IMG/VR virus record: IMGVR_UViG_2850796239_000007
Location: 1-38,467 of that record
Source: a virus
Taxonomy: Duplodnaviria > Heunggongvirae > Uroviricota > Caudoviricetes
Reading direction: 5' to 3' (one strand)
Length of the DNA stretch: 38,467 nucleotides
Shown here: positions 6,013 to 38,467 of the stretch, piece by piece
How the letters are laid out: every line of letters begins with the position of its first letter
How positions within the stretch are numbered: position 1 is the first letter of the stretch
Notes under the pieces: generated by a model
Databases searched by the model: none
Seen by the model: the letters and a program-made list of their open reading frames with translations, nothing else
What the model was told of the DNA's origin: nothing
Position numbers and translations under genes: made by a program

Positions 6013-6102
6013 ATGAATATGCCAACGTATCTCGCCAGAGTAGAACTATATAATGCTGAGCCAGAGGATTACGAAGGGCTTCATAAATATATGCTCTCAC
6101 TA
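6013..6102 (+). pseudogene. 5' part of small gene interrupted by IS5-family element
   Basis: joins in frame with 7021..7170 when IS and one TA copy are removed (80-aa ORF). Confidence 0.45.
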
Positions 6103-6162
6103 GGCTGTGTCCCTTAATCATCTGAGCTATAGTAACTGTCTGTTTACACAACATATTGAACT

Positions 6163-6612
6163 ATGGCTCGCTACGACCTTCCCGATGAGGCATGGACCAT
6201 CATCAAGCCCCTGTTACCTCCTGAACCCGCCACACCACGGGCCGGACGCCCATGGGCTGAGCACCGTAAAATCATCAATGGCATGTTCTGGGTGTTATGT
6301 TCCGGTGCACCATGGCGCGATTTACCCGAACGATATGGGTCATGGAAAACTGTTTATAACCGCTTTAACCGATGGTCAAAGTCAGGCGTGATTAATATTA
6401 TTTTCAACAGGTTGCTTTCGCTACTTGATGCAAACGGCTTTATTGACTGGTCTGCCACCGCGCTGGATGGCAGTAATATCCGGGCGCTGAAATGTGCCGC
6501 CGGTGCTCAAAAAAACATCCCGATATCGACGGAGATAATGGGCTGGGTCGCTCTCGCGGCGGTTTTGGCACCAAAATCCATCTGGCAACAGACGGAAGTG
6601 GCCTCCCGTTAA
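6163..6612 (+). CDS. IS5-family transposase OrfA
   Basis: 149 aa, MARYDLPDEAWTIIKPLLPP...; contains A AAA AAC slippery heptamer at about 6511..6517. Confidence 0.8.
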   Translation: MARYDLPDEAWTIIKPLLPPEPATPRAGRPWAEHRKIINGMFWVLCSGAPWRDLPERYGSWKTVYNRFNRWSKSGVINIIFNRLLSLLDANGFIDWSATALDGSNIRALKCAAGAQKNIPISTEIMGWVALAAVLAPKSIWQQTEVASR

Positions 6613-7007
6613 ATATCGTGCTAAGCCCCGGACAAGCTCATGAAAGCCAGTTCGCGCAACGACTTCTGGACGGGATTGGCGTTCAGCGTCAGAACGGCAG
6701 CATGAAACGCCGTGGACATGCGGTACTGGCTGATAAAGCGTATTCAGGGCGCGCATTGCGCAACGAGCTGAAAAATAACGGTATAAAGGCAGTAATCCCC
6801 CGAAAGTCAAATGAGAAAATGGCATCGGATGGACGTGCACAGCTTGATCGTGATGCGTACCGCAATCGTAATGTCGTTGAACGGTGCTTTGGGCGGCTGA
6901 AAGAATATCGCCGCATCGCCACGCGTTACGACAAAACGGCGAGAAATTACCTGGCGATGGTGAAACTGGGCTGCATCCGACTCTTTTATCAACGCTTACG
7001 TAATTAA
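6492..7007 (+). CDS. IS5-family transposase OrfB (DDE domain), -1 frame
   Basis: 171 aa in -1 frame overlapping OrfA. Confidence 0.8.
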   Translation: MCRRCSKKHPDIDGDNGLGRSRGGFGTKIHLATDGSGLPLNIVLSPGQAHESQFAQRLLDGIGVQRQNGSMKRRGHAVLADKAYSGRALRNELKNNGIKAVIPRKSNEKMASDGRAQLDRDAYRNRNVVERCFGRLKEYRRIATRYDKTARNYLAMVKLGCIRLFYQRLRN

Positions 7008-7020
7008 GGGACACAGCCTA

Positions 7021-7170
7021 GCATCCAGTAATCAGGTTAGCGAATTAACAATGTGGGTTAAACGACTGGTCAGTCAACTGAAAAAAGCTAAGCCTGACTG
7101 CAAATTACCGGAGAAGGCGATGGATTACCTGAAGCGAAATGGACTGATAAGCGTGGAGGATGTTTTACGA
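7021..7170 (+). pseudogene. 3' part of small gene interrupted by IS5-family copy 1
   Basis: in-frame continuation of 6013..6102. Confidence 0.45.
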
Positions 7171-7252
7171 TGACCTGGCCTGAAGCATTCACCACGGTAG
7201 GAATTGCAATGGCGGTGGCGCTGGTTGTGTATTCGATTTGCCGCTGGGGGTA
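7169..7252 (+). CDS. possible 27-aa hydrophobic peptide (MTWPEAFTTVGIAMAVALVVYSICRWG)
   Basis: ATGA overlap with upstream ORF stop; very short, unverified. Confidence 0.2.
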
Positions 7253-7259
7253 AGGTAAA

Positions 7260-7278
7260 CCAGCCCCGAACGGGCTGG
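7260..7278. terminator. hairpin CCAGCCC-(CGAAC)-GGGCTGG between convergent genes
   Basis: 7-bp GC-rich stem; U-rich on minus strand side. Confidence 0.4.
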
Positions 7279-7282
7279 TAAT

Positions 7283-7570
7283 TTAAAGAGGTAATTTGAT
7301 GATGGCTGTCAGTGCGCCAACAGCAACGACGAGCATGCCACCAAATCTGACGGTCAGTTGCAGGCTGAGTTTGTCTATTTTTGCATCAAGGGCTGCAATG
7401 TCGTTTTTTAGTTCAGTTCTGACATCATTTAGGTCGCGCTTTGTGGCGACTTCTGCGGCTTCGTGAGAATCTTTCACTGCGGCAGATATAGCGCGCGCCT
7501 GAGCTGCCGGCATTCCTGCGGCTTCCAAGGTTTCGACGAACTTCAGTGTATCAAAATAGACCTGAGCCAT
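7283..7570 (-). CDS. DUF1640-like coiled-coil protein with C-terminal TM helix
   Basis: 95 aa; ATG with AAGGAT SD; family recalled from prophage annotations. Confidence 0.55.
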   Translation of the reverse strand: MAQVYFDTLKFVETLEAAGMPAAQARAISAAVKDSHEAAEVATKRDLNDVRTELKNDIAALDAKIDKLSLQLTVRFGGMLVVAVGALTAIIKLPL

Positions 7571-7657
7571 GTTAAATCCTTCGTTGTTGGGGAATATTGT
7601 TAGTTTAGCCTGTAGTGGCTGTTGACGACAACGTTAATCCGGGGCTATATTCCTCAC

Positions 7658-7735
7658 GCGCCAGCAAAATCTGGCGTCGGGATTGGCGTCCCGGATGTTT
7701 ACGGAGCGATATGAGACGCGTCCGCGTCTTTTTTC
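7658..7735 (+). ncRNA. candidate short terminated RNA (c4/IsrK-like), copy upstream of ORF6N gene 1
   Basis: promoter TTGACG-18-TATATT (7622..7651); hairpins at 7659..7676 and 7677..7692; terminator 7714..7735. Confidence 0.4.
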
Positions 7736-7897
7736 ATATCGTTTGCACAGTCACATTCGCGATTTATGGCGGGCTGTGTGGGGGAGCCGAAAGGCTCGCC
7801 GGTTTCCGTACCCGGTTACGCCAACCCTGCACAGTTCGCCACCAGTTCGATTGGCGTCGTCGGTGGCGATAATTTCCAAATGTACGGAGTTATCGTT
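7736..7897 (+). promoter_or_regulatory. structured leader of ORF6N gene 1
   Basis: GNRA hairpin GAGCC-GAAA-GGCTC 7784..7797; ACGCCAAC site 7818..7825; hairpin TCGCCACC/GGTGGCGA 7846..7869. Confidence 0.5.
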
Positions 7898-8446
7898 ATG
7901 ACCACTCAAATCTCTGTTGAAACTCTCTCCCCGATCGCCCATAACCAGATACCTGTTATTACCACTGAACTTTTGGCGCAGTTGTACGGCACAGAAGCGA
8001 TTCGCATTCAGCAAAATCACGCCAGAAACGCTGAACGTTTTATTGAAGGTAAGCATTTTTATAAGTTAGTGGGCGATGAGCTTAGAGGTATGAAGCACAG
8101 ACTATCTTTAAGCGAGTCTGTGAAAATTGCCCGTAACGTTCGCTCCCTCATTCTCTGGACAGAACGCGGAGCAGCACGTCACGCCAAAATGCTCGAAACC
8201 GATCAGGCGTGGGAAGTATTCGAAAAATTGGAAGACTGCTACTTCAACCAGTACGAGAAAGATCGGGCTACGGGGAAAATGAACATCGATATTCACCTGG
8301 CGATCCGTGATGATAAAACTGCCTTCATCCGAAGTTATGCGCCTGGTCAGCTGGTGACGGTTGAAGAAGCCCTGATGTTGCTTAAATCGCGCGGATGGCT
8401 GGTAATGCCGCGAGATGAACTTGCCGGAAAATTAATGGAGCTTTAA
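7898..8446 (+). CDS. antirepressor-family protein, ORF6N-type N-terminal domain
   Basis: 182 aa from ATG 7898 (MTTQISVETL); paralog of 12010..12567; C-terminal motif shared with Rha protein. Confidence 0.6.
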   Translation: MTTQISVETLSPIAHNQIPVITTELLAQLYGTEAIRIQQNHARNAERFIEGKHFYKLVGDELRGMKHRLSLSESVKIARNVRSLILWTERGAARHAKMLETDQAWEVFEKLEDCYFNQYEKDRATGKMNIDIHLAIRDDKTAFIRSYAPGQLVTVEEALMLLKSRGWLVMPRDELAGKLMEL

Positions 8447-8460
8447 CTGGTTAAATTAGC

Positions 8461-8486
8461 CCCGATATGGGAATTCCCATATCGGG
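8461..8486. repeat. 26-bp perfect palindrome CCCGATATGGGAATTCCCATATCGGG
   Basis: 15 bp downstream of ORF6N gene 1 stop; not followed by a U-run. Confidence 0.5.
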
Positions 8487-8675
8487 AGAACATTACCACC
8501 GGGGATAAAATGATTTGCGGTGAAAGGGAAGTTAAGTAGAATTGCTGCGGGTGCTTGAGGCTATCTGTCTCAGGCATGAACACCAAAAGGCAGATGAGAA
8601 GCCCCAGTTAACATTACGCGTCCTGCAAGACGCTTAACATTAATCTGAGGCCAATTTCATGCTAGGCTGTGTCCC

Positions 8676-26280: not shown

Positions 26281-27309
26281 ATGAGCGCATTTACTCCTGC
26301 GACTACTATTGTGTCGCCGTCAATGGTGCTGCCGGAAATGATCGTGCAACAGAGCATGGCTTCCGGGGCGTTTGAAGTCCTGGCCGGTGGTGCTCCAGCG
26401 GTAAAAATCAGTTCCAGTGATTTGATGGTCTATCAGAAATATCTGCGCATGACCTCGCAGGCGCAGGTCAGCCAGTCTCTGCCGGGTCAGTTACCGTCTT
26501 CCAGTATCTCTGGCGGCTATGACGGAATGATGACTTACCGAATTTCTTCCCGCTCGCAATACAGCTATCTCGATACTGATGCAGCAGATCGCTGGGGCTA
26601 TTCTCTGATTGAAGGCCTGCGCCTGGCTAACCGTCAGGGACACGCTCAAATGTTGCGTAATATGCTGCTGTATGGCGTGAATGCAGCTAATAACGAGGGG
26701 ATCACCAACTCACCGAACGCAGTGACGCTGAATCTGGGCAACGACAGCAAAGGTAACGATTCGTACACCACCTGGGATTCCGGCGAGATGGCTAAATTTA
26801 TGCTTGGCCTGATTGCTGACCAGAAAACCCGCATGTTGCTGCTGGGGCAGCCATTAACGACTGTTATTCTGAGCCCACAGCGATTCATGAAGGCGCTGGA
26901 GTGGACAGGAATTGTTGAGCTGACCAGTTACCAGCGTCCTGGTGGTGGTACCGGAACGGTGGGAACGATGGTTAAAGACGTCGCCGATAAGGCGACAGGC
27001 GACGACATCATGTTCTGCTAGGACGACACGCTGATCGGTAAAGGCGCTGGTGGTAATGACCTGATCATCGTTACGAACCCGACGATTGAGGTTCCGGAAG
27101 CGCGTCACACCATTAACACCAATATTTTCTCCACGCTGGTACCTAACCAGCAGGCCGTCAACGTGATGTTCTGTGATATGGCAGCGCCGACGGAAATCCC
27201 GTCCCCTATGCCGGATGGCGGCCTGACCACGTTGTATACCATGCGCGCGACGCCGGGCTGGAACTTCCGCCCTGAGGGGATCACCCTGTTGTCTGCCAAA
27301 TACGCATAA
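26281..27309 (+). pseudogene. major capsid protein candidate with in-frame amber codon
   Basis: ORF 26281..27018 continues in the same frame after TAG at 27019..27021 to TAA at 27307..27309 (342 codons total). Confidence 0.5.
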
Positions 27310-27365
27310 ACGTTCAATCTGATAACGCGGGGAGCTAAATGCTCCCTTTTTTGTGGGAAAAATTT

Positions 27366-27836
27366 ATGAAGCTCTACATCGCTAACTGCTCACGTCAGCC
27401 GCACACGTTCAACTACAAACTCCCCGAAAAAACGCAGTCGTTCGGTGTGACAATTCCGTCCGGACGTCAGCATATGATCGAAAATCAGTCCGATATTATC
27501 GACCACATCATCCGACAGCATGAGCCTTACGGATTCCAGCGTTGTGACAAGGTGGACAAGAATTTTTCCGGTATCTGCTATTCCATCGATAAACCTGTGA
27601 GCGTCGGTCGCATTGAGGATTGCGCGGAGCAGAAAACGGAAAATCTGGAATCCCTGTCAGAAGAAATTCTTGCAGCCAGCGCCGTATCGCTGAATAACGC
27701 AGTGGATCAGGCAGTGATTCAAAGTGGCGAAAAACCTCAACCGGGTGGTATTGAAATGGAAATCACCGGGGAAGCGATTAACACTGAACAGGAAAATCCG
27801 CCCAGCACAAAGCGAAATATTAAGGTTAAAAAATAA
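27366..27836 (+). CDS. hypothetical head/neck protein
   Basis: 156 aa from ATG 27366. Confidence 0.45.
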   Translation: MKLYIANCSRQPHTFNYKLPEKTQSFGVTIPSGRQHMIENQSDIIDHIIRQHEPYGFQRCDKVDKNFSGICYSIDKPVSVGRIEDCAEQKTENLESLSEEILAASAVSLNNAVDQAVIQSGEKPQPGGIEMEITGEAINTEQENPPSTKRNIKVKK

Positions 27837-27961
27837 TGACCTTGCGTCCGTCACTGGAGGGATTTATTCGCTTTGTTCGTGACGACATGAAAGTATCGGT
27901 TCACGCTATTGCTGACGATGATCCGACGCTGGAATGTTGCTTTCAGTCTGCTATGGAGCTA
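27836..27961 (+). pseudogene. 5' part of structural gene interrupted by IS5-family copy 3
   Basis: joins in frame with 28879..29193 to give a 146-codon ORF. Confidence 0.5.
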
Positions 27962-28021
27962 GGCTGTGTCCCTTAATCATCTGAGCTATAGTAACTGTCT
28001 GTTTACACAACATATTGAACT

Positions 28022-28471
28022 ATGGCTCGCTACGACCTTCCCGATGAGGCATGGACCATCATCAAGCCCCTGTTACCTCCTGAACCCGCCACACCACGGG
28101 CCGGACGCCCATGGGCTGAGCACCGTAAAATCATCAATGGCATGTTCTGGGTGTTATGTTCCGGTGCACCATGGCGCGATTTACCCGAACGATATGGGTC
28201 ATGGAAAACTGTTTATAACCGCTTTAACCGATGGTCAAAGTCAGGCGTGATTAATATTATTTTCAACAGGTTGCTTTCGCTACTTGATGCAAACGGCTTT
28301 ATTGACTGGTCTGCCACCGCGCTGGATGGCAGTAATATCCGGGCGCTGAAATGTGCCGCCGGTGCTCAAAAAAACATCCCGATATCGACGGAGATAATGG
28401 GCTGGGTCGCTCTCGCGGCGGTTTTGGCACCAAAATCCATCTGGCAACAGACGGAAGTGGCCTCCCGTTAA
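28022..28471 (+). CDS. IS5-family transposase OrfA (copy 3)
   Basis: identical 149-aa product. Confidence 0.8.
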   Translation: MARYDLPDEAWTIIKPLLPPEPATPRAGRPWAEHRKIINGMFWVLCSGAPWRDLPERYGSWKTVYNRFNRWSKSGVINIIFNRLLSLLDANGFIDWSATALDGSNIRALKCAAGAQKNIPISTEIMGWVALAAVLAPKSIWQQTEVASR

Positions 28472-28758
28472 ATATCGTGCTAAGCCCCGGACAAGCTCAT
28501 GAAAGCCAGTTCGCGCAACGACTTCTGGACGGGATTGGCGTTCAGCGTCAGAACGGCAGCATGAAACGCCGTGGACATGCGGTACTGGCTGATAAAGCGT
28601 ATTCAGGGCGCGCATTGCGCAACGAGCTGAAAAATAACGGTATAAAGGCAGTAATCCCCGAAAGTCAAATGAGAAAATGGCATCGGATGGACGTGCACAG
28701 CTTGATCGTGATGCGTACCGCAATCGTAATGTCGTTGAACGGTGCTTTGGGCGGCTGA
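28351..28758 (+). pseudogene. IS5-family transposase OrfB, frameshifted in copy 3
   Basis: CCCCC to CCCC at about 28654 changes reading frame. Confidence 0.6.
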
Positions 28759-28878
28759 AAGAATATCGCCGCATCGCCACGCGTTACGACAAAACGGCGA
28801 GAAATTACCTGGCGATGGTGAAACTGGGCTGCATCCGACTCTTTTATCAACGCTTACGTAATTAAGGGACACAGCCTA

Positions 28879-29193
28879 ATCCCTCACGATCAGGGGCTGG
28901 AGCGTTTACCCATCATCTATGTGCGAACGGTTTATAACGCTGCCGCCTCATTTCTCCTGAATTTCGCTCCCGGCTCGTGGTTTGCCGACCTGAGAAAAAA
29001 ACTCAACCTTGGGAAACTGGCTACCGGGCTTGTCAGCGCGGCAGCAGACCAGGGGACATCTGGTTCGATCACCATCAGCGACGCGCTGAGTAATCTGTCT
29101 TTGCTGGATTTGCAGATGTTACAGGATCCGTATGGACGACAGGTTGTTGCGGTGCTGATGCAGATGGGCACGGTATGGGGTTACACGCCATGA
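28879..29193 (+). pseudogene. 3' part of structural gene interrupted by IS5-family copy 3
   Basis: in-frame continuation of 27836..27961. Confidence 0.5.
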
Positions 29194-29630
29194 AACTTTG
29201 TTTTGGGGTTATCGACCAGCCGTATGACTACGGCGACGAACTGGGAAAAACCACGTTTGACGTGGCCTGTGACCTCGAGGAGCGATACGAAATTTTTACG
29301 CACTTCTGGGAAATGCATAAGGACGAGATTATCCAGGAGGCAGGTACTGAACTGGCGTACCAGTTGGTCAATCACTTCAAGTATAAGGCTCCGCTACCTG
29401 GCGAGCATTTTCTGGAAGGGACCGGGAAGATTTTCCATATATTTCTTGAAACCGAAGAAATGGCCGGAATGACGATCAACGGAAATCAGGTCCCAACCCA
29501 GGCTGCGTTACAGGGTGTTAACTCAAGGCTTAAGGACAAATATACCGGGGAGCGGCGCCCGTCATTCATAGATGGCGGCCTGTTTAAGGGCAGCTTTATA
29601 GCGTGGATAGATAACAATGCCGAGTCTTGA
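29190..29630 (+). CDS. hypothetical tail/neck protein
   Basis: ATG in ATGA overlap with upstream stop. Confidence 0.5.
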   Translation: MKLCFGVIDQPYDYGDELGKTTFDVACDLEERYEIFTHFWEMHKDEIIQEAGTELAYQLVNHFKYKAPLPGEHFLEGTGKIFHIFLETEEMAGMTINGNQVPTQAALQGVNSRLKDKYTGERRPSFIDGGLFKGSFIAWIDNNAES

Positions 29631-30561
29631 AGAATTAGCCGAACAGCACAGTTCGCAGCTCTCGTCCGTTCTTAAATCCGCAGTTGAAACCATCTCGTCA
29701 GACTAGGAAATCACGTTCAGGCTCTATGTCCGGCAGGTTCTGCCGCTGGATGGCTTTGTCTATTGGGTTAATGCGGAAATCATCAGTTGCGATGAACTGT
29801 GTCGTCTGAATATTGAGTCACCAACTCGTCTGAAAATCAAAGGCAGCCTGCATCGTCAGATTATTGCGATTCAGGACGAGTCTGTCTCGAAGGATGTGAA
29901 CAACATTATTTTCACGCCTGTTCAGCAGGTTGATGATTTTAATGTGGAAAATCCCGATGCGATCTATCTCGGTGAGTACGGCGGCGTCCAGTTCGCTTTT
30001 TCTCGAATGGAGAGCCGCTATCAGCAGTCGGGTATTTTTCATTATCGCGGCATGGCGATTTTTCCAACCATGCGTTCCCAGATTATCGACTGCGAGGAGG
30101 ATATCAGCGACGAGCAGATCATATCCAACAGCATCCCGATCTGGCTGCAAATGAAAGATGCCGCGACCGTGTATCCGTCTTACCTGGTACCGCAGAACCT
30201 TCGCCCTCCGTATATCGCGGTGGATGTTCGCAACAGTATTCCATTGCAGGTGGCTCCCGTTGTTTTCGGTGGTGAGCGATTCCAGCTCGTCCAGGATTCG
30301 GTTCGCCTGACGCTTTATGGATTCAGCAATAAAATGGCGCTGGATCTTGTCGACTCGGTGGTGAACAGGGCGCTGGAGGAGGAAAAGTTTGGTGTAACCA
30401 ATATTCCGGTGGTTCAGGACGCAAAGTCGGGACAGGTTGAAATCAACGCTCTGGCGAAGAAAAAGATTGTCGATTTTGACGTGAATTACTACCAGAGCAC
30501 CGCCCGGGAAATATCCCGGCAGTTGATTGAAAAAGTCATTTGTAAATATGAGGTTAAATAA
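29617..30561 (+). pseudogene. structural protein with in-frame amber codon at codon 30
   Basis: ATG 29617 overlapping upstream gene; TAG at 29704..29706; frame open to 30561. Confidence 0.5.
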
Positions 30562-31814
30562 TGGGGTTTAATATCGTCACGGTGAATGTGTCCCAGACCA
30601 TCGGGGCCATTCCCTCGAATTTGCAGCAGATGTCCGCTGTTCTCTCGTTTGGCTCCACGACTCATGAGCCGGGAAAGCCTGTATTACTCACCCGTAATCA
30701 GGATATTAACGATCTGGTAAGAAATCCGATTGCTGCGTTGTCGGCGGCTGCTGCAGGAAAATCTGCGGCAAACGTCACCGTTACGATGACGCTTCCGGAA
30801 GGGAGCAACATCCGACGCGAAAACAGTTCTGAGGTGAAAATTGTTGTTTCCGGGTGTTCGCCCGACGCGTGGAATGGCGAATATACTGCTACCGTCACGG
30901 ATGAAAAAACACTGACCTGGACGATTGCTGATTCTCAGCTTTCCGGTTCGCCAGTGACACTGGGGCAGTTTTCCATTGTTGGCAGTGAAAATCTGGTGAC
31001 GGCAGTAAACACGTTTTTTGCCCAGGGAAATTCAGTTGGGATTTACCTGCTGGAGCTGGGAGTACAGAAAGGTGGAGTCAGTAAGGAAATCGCTGCACTG
31101 AAAGCTTATATGGAAGATCCGCTCCTGCGTTTTTATGCGTATCTGGTGCCGCAGCCGTGGGATGGTGACGCAGAGTTTATCAGTCTGGCAAAACTCCACA
31201 CCGCCAACGAAGCGATGCAGTATTTCTTCGTGCTGACGAAAACGCCGGACGACACGAATTACGTTTCGCCTTATGCCGGTATTAAGTCGGTTATTGCAAC
31301 GGCGGATGATACGTACCCGGCGACAAACGCGGCAGCAGCCGTAATGTGGAACTATGTTTCCGCATCACCTTCAGAAATCAACAAGGTGCCGCCGATGGCA
31401 TTTCGCTATCTACAGGCGGTAAACGCCCACACGGGCAAAAATTCAATTCTGGTCACGATGACGAAGCAGAATATTAACTACGTCGACACGGGGGCTGAGG
31501 GGGGAATTTCCAACACGATTCTGGTGAAAGGCGTTACCAGTGACGGTAACGATATGACGTACTGGTATTCCGTGGACTGGGTGCAGATTAATGTCGATAT
31601 GCAGCTCGCACAGGCGGTGTTCAATACGGGCGTATCTTACGGCCTGGTCAACGGTCAGCCTGTCATCGATGCAGTGCCTTTCCGCCAGTATATCAACACT
31701 AATCCCAATGATTACGGTATCGGGCGTTATGCAGGCCTTTCGGCCTCCTATACGCCGATGCGCGGATTTGTCGAAATCATTTTTAACATCAATGTGACAA
31801 TGCAGCTTTCGTGA
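30561..31814 (+). CDS. tail sheath protein (putative)
   Basis: 417 aa immediately upstream of tube-sized gene, chaperone pair and tape measure. Confidence 0.5.
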   Translation: MGFNIVTVNVSQTIGAIPSNLQQMSAVLSFGSTTHEPGKPVLLTRNQDINDLVRNPIAALSAAAAGKSAANVTVTMTLPEGSNIRRENSSEVKIVVSGCSPDAWNGEYTATVTDEKTLTWTIADSQLSGSPVTLGQFSIVGSENLVTAVNTFFAQGNSVGIYLLELGVQKGGVSKEIAALKAYMEDPLLRFYAYLVPQPWDGDAEFISLAKLHTANEAMQYFFVLTKTPDDTNYVSPYAGIKSVIATADDTYPATNAAAAVMWNYVSASPSEINKVPPMAFRYLQAVNAHTGKNSILVTMTKQNINYVDTGAEGGISNTILVKGVTSDGNDMTYWYSVDWVQINVDMQLAQAVFNTGVSYGLVNGQPVIDAVPFRQYINTNPNDYGIGRYAGLSASYTPMRGFVEIIFNINVTMQLS

Positions 31815-31825
31815 GGGACTGAACC

Positions 31826-32269
31826 GTGCCTAATCCAATGATCCCCGTTGGCACCCTTAACCGGGTTCGCGCCAGCGTTAAATTCACCTCCCATTCTGAA
31901 CTGAATGTGTCCGCCTCATTTCTGGCAAAAGAAGGCGTCGAATTGTCCTGTCAGGGCAATATCACGGAGTTTTTACCCGCTATGACGGGAGCCGTGCAGT
32001 CGCCGCAGCCATACATGATTTTACAGGCGCGTGTTCATCTGCTGCGTAGCCAGGCGCTGGGAAAACAATTCAAGGCGCAATGGGAAAAGAATGCCACGAT
32101 CGGCGACGCAAAAGTGTATAGCGACAGCACGGTGTTCGGTGACTTCGATATCTATAACACGGCGATCACCAACGTGCAGGATATGACCTTCGCCGGGGGC
32201 GAGCCGGGTGTGGCCATCACCATTACTGGTACGTATTACATCAACTCTGAAATGTGGGATCTGGTATGA
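31826..32269 (+). CDS. tail tube protein (putative)
   Basis: 147 aa; gene order. Confidence 0.45.
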   Translation: MPNPMIPVGTLNRVRASVKFTSHSELNVSASFLAKEGVELSCQGNITEFLPAMTGAVQSPQPYMILQARVHLLRSQALGKQFKAQWEKNATIGDAKVYSDSTVFGDFDIYNTAITNVQDMTFAGGEPGVAITITGTYYINSEMWDLV

Positions 32270-32639
32270 AAATCGCGCGAAATTTAAACCTGATTATTCC
32301 TGTCCGGACAGAAAAGGGTAATGGCTGGATCCATGCCACGCCGATCAGCAAAGAGGTGTTTAAAGAGCATTTCTTCATTCTGAGTAAAACTTTTTCTGCC
32401 ATTTTTTCAGAAGGTTTTGGCGTCGTTGCGGGTCCGCGTATCGCTTTTTTGATGCTGGAGCGGATCTCGCGTGATTCTAATATCTGGGAAGGTGATAAAG
32501 GGGTCCGTAATACACTTGTTAATGAGGTCATTCGCCTGGCAAACCTTGTTTACCCAGTGGAGGGTAAAGGCTACGACACAATCCCTCTCGATATGGCGCT
32601 GGAGCGTGAAATCATTGATTTGGATGAAGTGGCGGGTGA

Positions 32640-34597
<1,958 letters not shown>

Positions 34598-35409: not shown

Positions 35410-35500
35410 TAGACTGGCCCCCTGAATCTCCAGACAACCAGTATCACTTAAATAAGTGATAGTCTTAATACTAGTTTTTAGACTAGTCATTGGAGTACAG

Positions 35501-35866
35501 ATGATTGATGTCTTAGGGCCGGAGAAACGCAGACGGCGTACCACACAGGAAAAGATCGCAATTGTTCAGCAGAGCTTTGAACCGGGGATGACGGTCTCCC
35601 TCGTTGCCCGGCAACATGGTGTAGCAGCCAGCCAGTTATTTCTCTGGCGTAAGCAATACCAGGAAGGAAGTCTTACTGCTGTGGCCGCCGGAGAACAGGT
35701 TGTTCCTGCCTCTGAACTTGCTGCCGCCATGAAGCAGATTAAAGAACTCCAGCGCCTGCTCGGCAAGAAAACGATGGAAAATGAACTCCTCAAAGAAGCC
35801 GTTGAATATGGACGGGCAAAAAAGTGGATAGCGCACGCGCCCTTATTGCCCGGGGATGGGGAGTAA
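35501..35866 (+). CDS. insC: IS2 OrfA
   Basis: [24 protein letters not shown]... Confidence 0.9.
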
Positions 35867-36729
35867 GCTTAGTCAGCCGTTGTCTCCGGGTGTCGCGTGC
35901 GCAGTTGCACGTCATTCTCAGACGAACCGATGACTGGATGGATGGCCGCCGCAGTCGTCACACTGATGATACGGATGTGCTTCTCCGTATACACCATGTT
36001 ATCGGAGAGCTGCCCACGTATGGTTATCGTCGGGTATGGGCGCTGCTTCGCAGACAGGCAGAACTTGATGGTATGCCTGCGATCAATGCCAAACATGTTT
36101 ACCGGATCATGCGCCAGAATGCGCTGTTGCTTGAGCGAAAACCTGCTGTACCGCCATCGAAACGGGCACATACAGGCAGAGTGGCCGTGAAAGAAAGCAA
36201 TCAGCGATGGTGCTCTGACGGGTTCGAGTTCTGCTGTGATAACGGAGAGAGACTGCGTGTCACGTTCGCGCTGGACTGCTGTGATCGTGAGGCACTGCAC
36301 TGGGCGGTGACTACCGGCGGCTTCAACAGTGAAACAGTACAGGACGTCATGCTGGGAGCGGTGGAACGCCGCTTCGGCAACGATCTTCCGTCGTCTCCAG
36401 TGGAGTGGCTGACGGATAATGGTTCATGCTACCGGGCTAATGAAACACGCCAGTTCGCCCGGATGTTGGGACTTGAACCGAAGAACACGGCGGTGCGGAG
36501 TCCGGAGAGTAACGGAATAGCAGAGAGCTTCGTGAAAACGATAAAGCGTGACTACATCAGTATCATGCCCAAACCAGACGGGTTAACGGCAGCAAAGAAC
36601 CTTGCAGAGGCGTTCGAGCATTATAACGAATGGCATCCGCATAGTGCGCTGGGTTATCGCTCGCCACGGGAATATCTGCGGCAGCGGGCTTGTAATGGGT
36701 TAAGTGATAACAGATGTCTGGAAATATAG
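35824..36729 (+). CDS. insD: IS2 OrfB transposase
   Basis: 301 aa DDE transposase overlapping insC. Confidence 0.9.
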
Positions 36730-37087: not shown

Positions 37088-37290
37088 TTATTCCTCTGGG
37101 TAAGCTGAGCTAATCAAGGTATCTTCCTGCATACGATTAATATGAGATGTGGTTCTTTCATCAATAACCTTTCCATCAAGTACCGTCTGAGTTGTGATAT
37201 TGATTGTCTGAGGCTGAATATTTACTGACGGCTTGATAACCTTTAAATCTTGTGTGAATGTTTCCACTCGACCTTTCAGATTATTTAATG
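37088..37290 (-). pseudogene. 3' fragment of unknown gene W, interrupted by IS911
   Basis: frame open from the IS911 boundary to stop 3 nt upstream of gene X start. Confidence 0.35.
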
Positions 37291-37298
37291 TGAAGTGG

Positions 37299-38467
<1,169 letters not shown>

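Follow-up and report, generated by a model that had tools for sequence, protein, structure and literature searches.

A premature amber codon in CTAGG, a former Dcm site, within the putative major capsid gene of a decaying Rac-like Shigella boydii prophage

INTRODUCTION

The window analyzed here, a stretch of 38,467 nucleotides, contains a prophage whose putative major capsid gene is interrupted in frame by an amber codon (TAG) lying within the pentamer CTAGG. Dcm methylates the inner (second) cytosine of CCAGG, and a first-pass annotation of this DNA had accordingly attributed the stop to deamination of 5-methylcytosine at such a site, which would turn a glutamine codon into TAG and inactivate the prophage head. 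This raised the question of whether the stop is real, what preceded it, by which route it arose, and what it meant for the capsid protein and for the prophage as a whole. Shigella flexneri has dcm, and CCWGG methylation has been detected in its DNA (PMC12215381).

RESULTS

An amber codon divides one reading frame into two

Direct reading of the window gave ...ATG TTC TGC TAG GAC GAC..., with the T, A, and G of the stop at positions 27019, 27020, and 27021. The C at 27018 precedes the stop and the G at 27022 follows it, which completes the CTAGG pentamer at 27018-27022. Translation of 26281-27309 in a single frame yielded 246 amino acids, a stop, another 95 amino acids, and a terminal stop (TAA, 27307-27309). 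Both the divided open reading frame and the pentamer were therefore as the first-pass annotation had described them. Features bearing on the argument are collected in Table 1.

ARAGORN identified four tRNA genes in the window, Met-CAT, Arg-TCT, Thr-TGT, and Gly-TCC, at 12775-13085. None of these four has a CTA anticodon able to read UAG, again in line with what had been stated before. The genes form a cluster inside the prophage with only 1 to 3 bases between them, and the one with the CAT anticodon could equally represent a lysidine-modified Ile tRNA.

Table 1. Features of the window that bear on the capsid amber and on the state of the prophage
Feature	Coordinates	Strand	Remarks
terS homologue with a one-base deletion (~18499)	18269..19359	+	same deletion in AERN01000081.1
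IS110-family element (ISEc20/ISSso6-like) in the DUF2213 gene	23488..24942	-	second copy at 13755-15210
Truncated 5' part of the putative major capsid gene (rac45 homologue)	26281..27021	+	ATG start, 246 codons plus amber
CTAGG, former Dcm site; changed base is the inner C	27018..27022	+	CCAGG in three aligned homologues
Premature amber TAG, ancestral CAG (Gln247)	27019..27021	+	read directly; homologue alignment
Orphaned 3' part of the capsid gene, in frame	27022..27309	+	95 codons plus TAA; translation
IS5-family ISSfl7-like element in the rac47 homologue	27959..28878	+	further copies at 6100-7024 and 8659-9583
rac49 homologue (phrog_6359, function not known), directly upstream of the tail sheath gene	29617..30561	+	second amber, at codon 30
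Second CTAGG, from CCAGG (TAG at 29704-29706, ancestral CAG)	29703..29707	+	comparison; also in AERN01000081.1
Junction left by the in-frame loss of 84 bp (28 codons) from the tail sheath gene (30561-31814)	31601..31609	+	compared with three intact prophages
Remnant of a gene annotated as lytic transglycosylase in Rac-SA53	32948..33796	+	849 of 2,076 nt left

The interrupted gene is predicted to encode an HK97-fold major capsid protein

The 1,029-nt stretch matched 84 E. coli chromosomes, in 82 of which at least 80% of its length was covered. In every record inspected, the intact homologue is one uninterrupted gene of 342 codons labelled "hypothetical protein." The gene corresponds to rac45 of Escherichia phage Rac-SA53 (KU052037), and the copy in the window differs from its intact homologues by 3 mismatches in 1,029 nt.

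For protein searches, the translation with glutamine restored at position 247 was used as the query. This search retrieved 247 relatives, the best 120 of which are ~340 amino acids long, apart from a few entries of 220 to 302 amino acids; several of these 120 are annotated with PF09950 or as "major capsid family protein." Relatives at 43 to 73% identity carry PF09950 and matched the query at E values of ≤1e-80, and 23 of the 28 aligned homologues matched PF09950 (Major_capside; best E = 8.1e-9). For the intact E. coli homologue itself, a Pfam scan gave no match at E ≤ 0.01 and an NCBIfam scan assigned no family. A partial match of the capsid protein to phrog_264 (major head protein) was found, and a sequence-profile search of solved structures returned nothing meaningful.

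An AlphaFold model was built from the homologue alignment and reached moderate confidence (mean pLDDT, 68.9). Its best Foldseek matches were the phage capsids FCWL1, T1, Pa193, Pam3, XM1, and E217, with an E value of 1.8e-12, a probability of 1.00, and TM scores of 0.58/0.66 for the best PDB match. The top 50 PDB matches listed were all phage capsid or encapsulin shell entries. The predicted fold thus agrees with that of the PF09950 capsids (formerly DUF2184), which have relatives in FCWL1, T1, Pa193, and E217. Unlike these capsids, the protein of the window is truncated, and the E. coli/Shigella protein itself falls below the Pfam threshold.

The position of the gene is that of a capsid gene in a head module. 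The order runs terS, terL, portal (PF06381), rac42, a DUF2213 gene, rac44, and rac45, and 3' of rac45 there are small genes without known function and then a tail sheath gene (phrog_205). The DUF2213 gene weakly matched PHROGs for head maturation protease and corresponds to the Pa193_gp24-like gene of the Pa193-type head module. Together, the modelled fold, the PF09950 homologues, and the place in the head module indicate that the gene product is an HK97-fold major capsid protein, which upholds the earlier designation of the reading frame as a putative major capsid gene.

The stop is real and is derived from a glutamine codon

All three aligned homologues, from E. coli C7, Rac-SA53, and E. coli W, have CCAGG and a CAG codon at the site (TGC CAG GAC), just as the first-pass annotation had anticipated for intact copies. 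The T in place of C is the sole difference between the window and these three at this spot. Aligned against three comparators only, the change is one from CCAGG to CTAGG, and from Gln247 to amber, that is derived on the lineage of the window.

Homopolymer deletions and changes at methylation motifs are a familiar pattern of error in long-read assemblies, and a long-read miscall at a methylated motif would make the stop an artefact of sequencing or assembly. Probable errors do occur in the window assembly: seven deletions each shorten a G or C run of at least 5 by one base, and homopolymer lengths vary among copies of a given IS in the window. However, an exact look-up of the 246-amino-acid product located it in CP026875.1, AERN01000081.1, QWSH01000241.1, and the Logan assembly of run SRR3793777, and T is present at 27019 in all four. 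CP026875.1 (GCA_002950355.1) is 100% identical to the window over 20.7 kb; the three other assemblies come from separate projects and data, and one of them was built from a public read set. Independent assemblies thus have T, and never C, at this base. AERN01000081.1, which also spans the second amber discussed below, has T at 29704 too. Moreover, the product has been an NCBI protein (WP_001272369.1/EFW53619.1) since the 2011 draft genome of Shigella boydii ATCC 9905. A long-read artefact, which would be exceedingly improbable, was rejected for the TAG, which is common to three other assemblies, whereas the homopolymer deletions are private to one. The TAG is real and no sequencing error.

The seven deletions themselves, at 19663, 23487, 23529, 25733, 25842, 28655, and 34276, all lie in G or C runs of at least 5 and are private to the CP026875.1 assembly. 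None of the seven occurs in AERN01000081.1, and the two that lie within the coverage of QWSH01000241.1 and SRR3793777 are absent there as well. They are probably assembly errors of this record. Among 50 window-specific differences from three intact prophages, 5 are one-base homopolymer deletions. The deletions produce apparent frameshifts in terL, in rac44 (split into 25651-25863 and 25811-26266), in an IS110-family transposase, and in an ISSfl7 copy; such false frameshifts are relevant to pseudogene counts in the CP026875.1 record.

An exact scan of one genome per species did not recover the 30-mer containing the TAG. Likewise, the 41-mers centred on each of the two TAG codons were absent from 5,426 complete E. 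coli genomes, a test that spans the closest haplotypes only, as the wild-type (C) control 41-mer was present in only 8 complete E. coli genomes. The TAG allele appears to be confined to one S. boydii lineage. A literature search for accession CP026875 found nothing, and the only paper found to name Rac-SA53 deals with matters unrelated to the capsid.

The truncation removes conserved parts of the capsid protein

In the 28-sequence alignment of homologues (43 to 100% identity), a near-invariant DDTLIGKG motif directly follows the stop position. Beyond residue 246, 17 positions are invariant (D248, T250, L251, G255, G258, D260, T280, N281, F283, D299, P303, P309, R322, G326, W327, R330, and S338). 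Homologues ending at the position of the stop would have refuted the proposed origin, as the first-pass annotation had pointed out. No homologue in the 28-sequence alignment ends there, and the best 120 of the 247 relatives are mostly of the full length given above. The alignment column of the stop is occupied by Gln, Ala, Met, Pro, Val, or Tyr in the more distant homologues. Because the missing 95 residues hold many invariant positions, the 246-residue product, judged from this conservation, cannot work as a capsid protein, and the allele would be null.

We also considered that the stop might be tolerated or even used, with a suppressor tRNA or readthrough giving full-length capsid protein, or with the 246-amino-acid fragment being functional. 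The 95 codons downstream are still open and show few differences from intact homologues, and a glutamine-inserting suppressor would give back the wild-type residue. Yet an open downstream frame is expected anyway for a recent mutation, and a suppressor tRNA is absent among the four tRNAs of the window. No homologue in the 28-sequence alignment ends near residue 246, and adjacent head, tail, and packaging genes are broken too (Table 1), which leaves no virion for the capsid protein to build. A tolerated or functional stop is hardly credible on these grounds, and loss of capsid function remains the preferred reading.

A second amber and an excess of transitions point to Dcm methylation

A second amber was found 2.7 kb downstream of the capsid amber, in the rac49 homologue. 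Here, too, a C-to-T change had occurred at the same inner base of the pentamer. For counts of lineage-specific changes, the ancestor was defined by the positions at which C7, Rac-SA53, and W agree, over 13.3 kb. G:C-to-A:T transitions were found at 2 of 56 positions in Dcm targets (28 ancestral sites), compared to 21 of 6,147 other G/C positions. The resulting enrichment at Dcm targets has an odds ratio of 10.8 (one-sided Fisher P = 0.018) and rests on two events. With a background of only ~0.19 transitions expected over the 56 Dcm targets, each of the two events is favored by roughly nine to one to be related to methylation.

An ordinary C-to-T change, caused by deamination of unmethylated cytosine or by a replication error that fell within CCAGG by chance, would leave the same stop. 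The background of such changes is not negligible: G:C-to-A:T transitions (C to T and G to A) account for 23 of the 44 lineage-specific substitutions and are the commonest class, and a lone C-to-T change is not assignable to methylation with certainty. Even at this background, about 0.19 chance events are expected at the 56 Dcm targets, against the two observed. Both transitions hit exactly the cytosine targeted by Dcm, and the magnitude of the excess agrees with the classical hotspot. A change unrelated to methylation is therefore unlikely, and we favor deamination of 5-methylcytosine, for which the second event and the 10.8-fold enrichment lend support to the original proposal.

That this is a known hotspot mechanism in E. 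coli, as had been asserted, is borne out by the lacI gene, in which CCAGG forms a hotspot for ambers at its second C, with ~10-fold overrepresentation (Coulondre, Miller, Farabaugh, and Gilbert 1978; reviewed in PMC12606429). The lacI hotspots share with the capsid amber the pentamer, the base, and the change from CAG to TAG. They differ in being selected laboratory mutants with a measured frequency, whereas the change in the window is a natural mutation fixed in a prophage of a wild Shigella lineage and deduced by comparison.

The prophage is defective irrespective of the capsid amber

The prophage is collinear with KU052037 and with the prophages of E. coli C7 and A17, with 97 to 99.5% identity over 18124-33796 and only IS-related or deletion breaks. 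Rac-SA53 and the prophages of C7, A17, and W have a complete structural module, and their genes from terS through the tail region are arranged as in the window. In contrast to these Rac-SA53-type prophages, the window has the IS110-family and ISSfl7 insertions, two ambers, a terS frameshift, and the 84-bp deletion in the sheath gene, the junction of which falls on an imperfect direct repeat of 9 bp (GCAGCTCGC / GCAGGTCGC). The terS frameshift is probably real, because the deletion is common to AERN01000081.1. Compared with Rac-SA53, the prophage retains the first 849 nt of the annotated lytic transglycosylase gene and lacks all that follows; homology to the intact prophages stops at 33796, and IS sequence begins there.

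Judged from these lesions, the prophage is defective, presumably unable to form particles, and would be dead even without the capsid amber. The expectation that the amber would inactivate the prophage head thus holds for the protein and is uninformative on the prophage, in which no fewer than five further lesions are disabling. The contigs QWSH01000241.1 and SRR3793777 end in the same IS elements, and every carrier examined has both the amber and the insertions, so that either may have come first.

Both Dcm-site events are nonsense mutations in structural genes, a pattern that would also be expected if ambers had been favored by selection to silence virion production, i.e., in the course of prophage domestication. 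However, an amber would result at 18 of the 70 Dcm target positions (26%) of the intact module, a share that reflects how often the sites are read in the frames C-CAG-G and CC-TGG. With no selection at all, both hits would accordingly be ambers with a probability of ~0.07, and virion production is already abolished by the IS insertions alone. Selection for the nonsense mutations is very improbable and was set aside as unnecessary, given that 26% of the Dcm targets in the module are amber-prone. A further reading holds that Dcm deamination is an outsized source of nonsense pseudogenes in S. boydii, for example because Vsr is weakened or lost, in which case the two ambers would belong to a CCWGG-to-CTWGG signature that extends across the genome, or else that ambers are selected for silencing; we regard this reading as distinctly unlikely.

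Deamination of 5-methylcytosine at a Dcm site, combined with neutral decay, is in our view the best explanation and a probable one. In an S. boydii lineage with a Rac-SA53-type prophage, the inner C of the Dcm site at capsid codon 247 would have changed to T, most likely by hydrolytic deamination of 5-methylcytosine to thymine, and the resulting T:G mismatch would have escaped very-short-patch (VSP) repair by Vsr. CAG would thereby have become TAG, with translation ending after residue 246, the last 95 residues gone, and a null allele left behind. The same kind of event would have struck a second structural gene 2.7 kb downstream, both ambers being neutral pseudogenising mutations in a cryptic, decaying prophage. 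We infer the chemical cause (methylation and deamination), the escape from VSP repair, and the neutrality from the pattern described above.

The mechanism is already known: a textbook mutation has struck a Dcm site in a Rac-like S. boydii prophage whose decay is itself ordinary, and the truncated capsid product is already in the databases. The case is a clean natural instance of the classical 5-methylcytosine hotspot, found twice within 2.7 kb, and it mainly matters for annotation. The capsid locus should be called a pseudogene by nonsense mutation, rather than two hypothetical open reading frames, and the prophage a defective remnant. With IS110-family, IS5-family (ISSfl7), and IS2/IS3-family elements in multiple copies in 38 kb beside point-mutation pseudogenes, the window is typical of the pseudogene formation and IS-driven decay of Shigella and has no distinguishing feature.

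Mobile elements and accessory genes in the window

The two copies of the IS110-family element, at 13755-15210 and 23488-24942, are two G/A substitutions and one homopolymer length apart, and the NCBIfam label for the family of this element is RNA-guided transposase. The ISSfl7-like copies at 6100-7024 and 8659-9583 are identical and inverted. They flank ~1.6 kb (7025-8658) with an open reading frame of 226 amino acids (7766-8446), and the pair might represent either a structure resembling a composite transposon or the two ends of an inversion.

A gene for a TrkH-family potassium transporter (16511-17986; 491 amino acids) is placed between the lysis module and the terminase module, much as trkG is in the Rac prophage of K-12. 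Its product scores below the TrkH equivalog cutoff (452 versus 866 bits).

Sequences of the IS3 family are clustered past the point where prophage homology ends. They include the stretch 35456-36729, with IS2 TnpB at 35824-36729, and a pair of inverted repeats of ~566 bp at 33783-34347 and 37290-37858. The minus strand of this region also encodes a fragment of a Dit_like protein (distal tail protein), which hints at part of another prophage.
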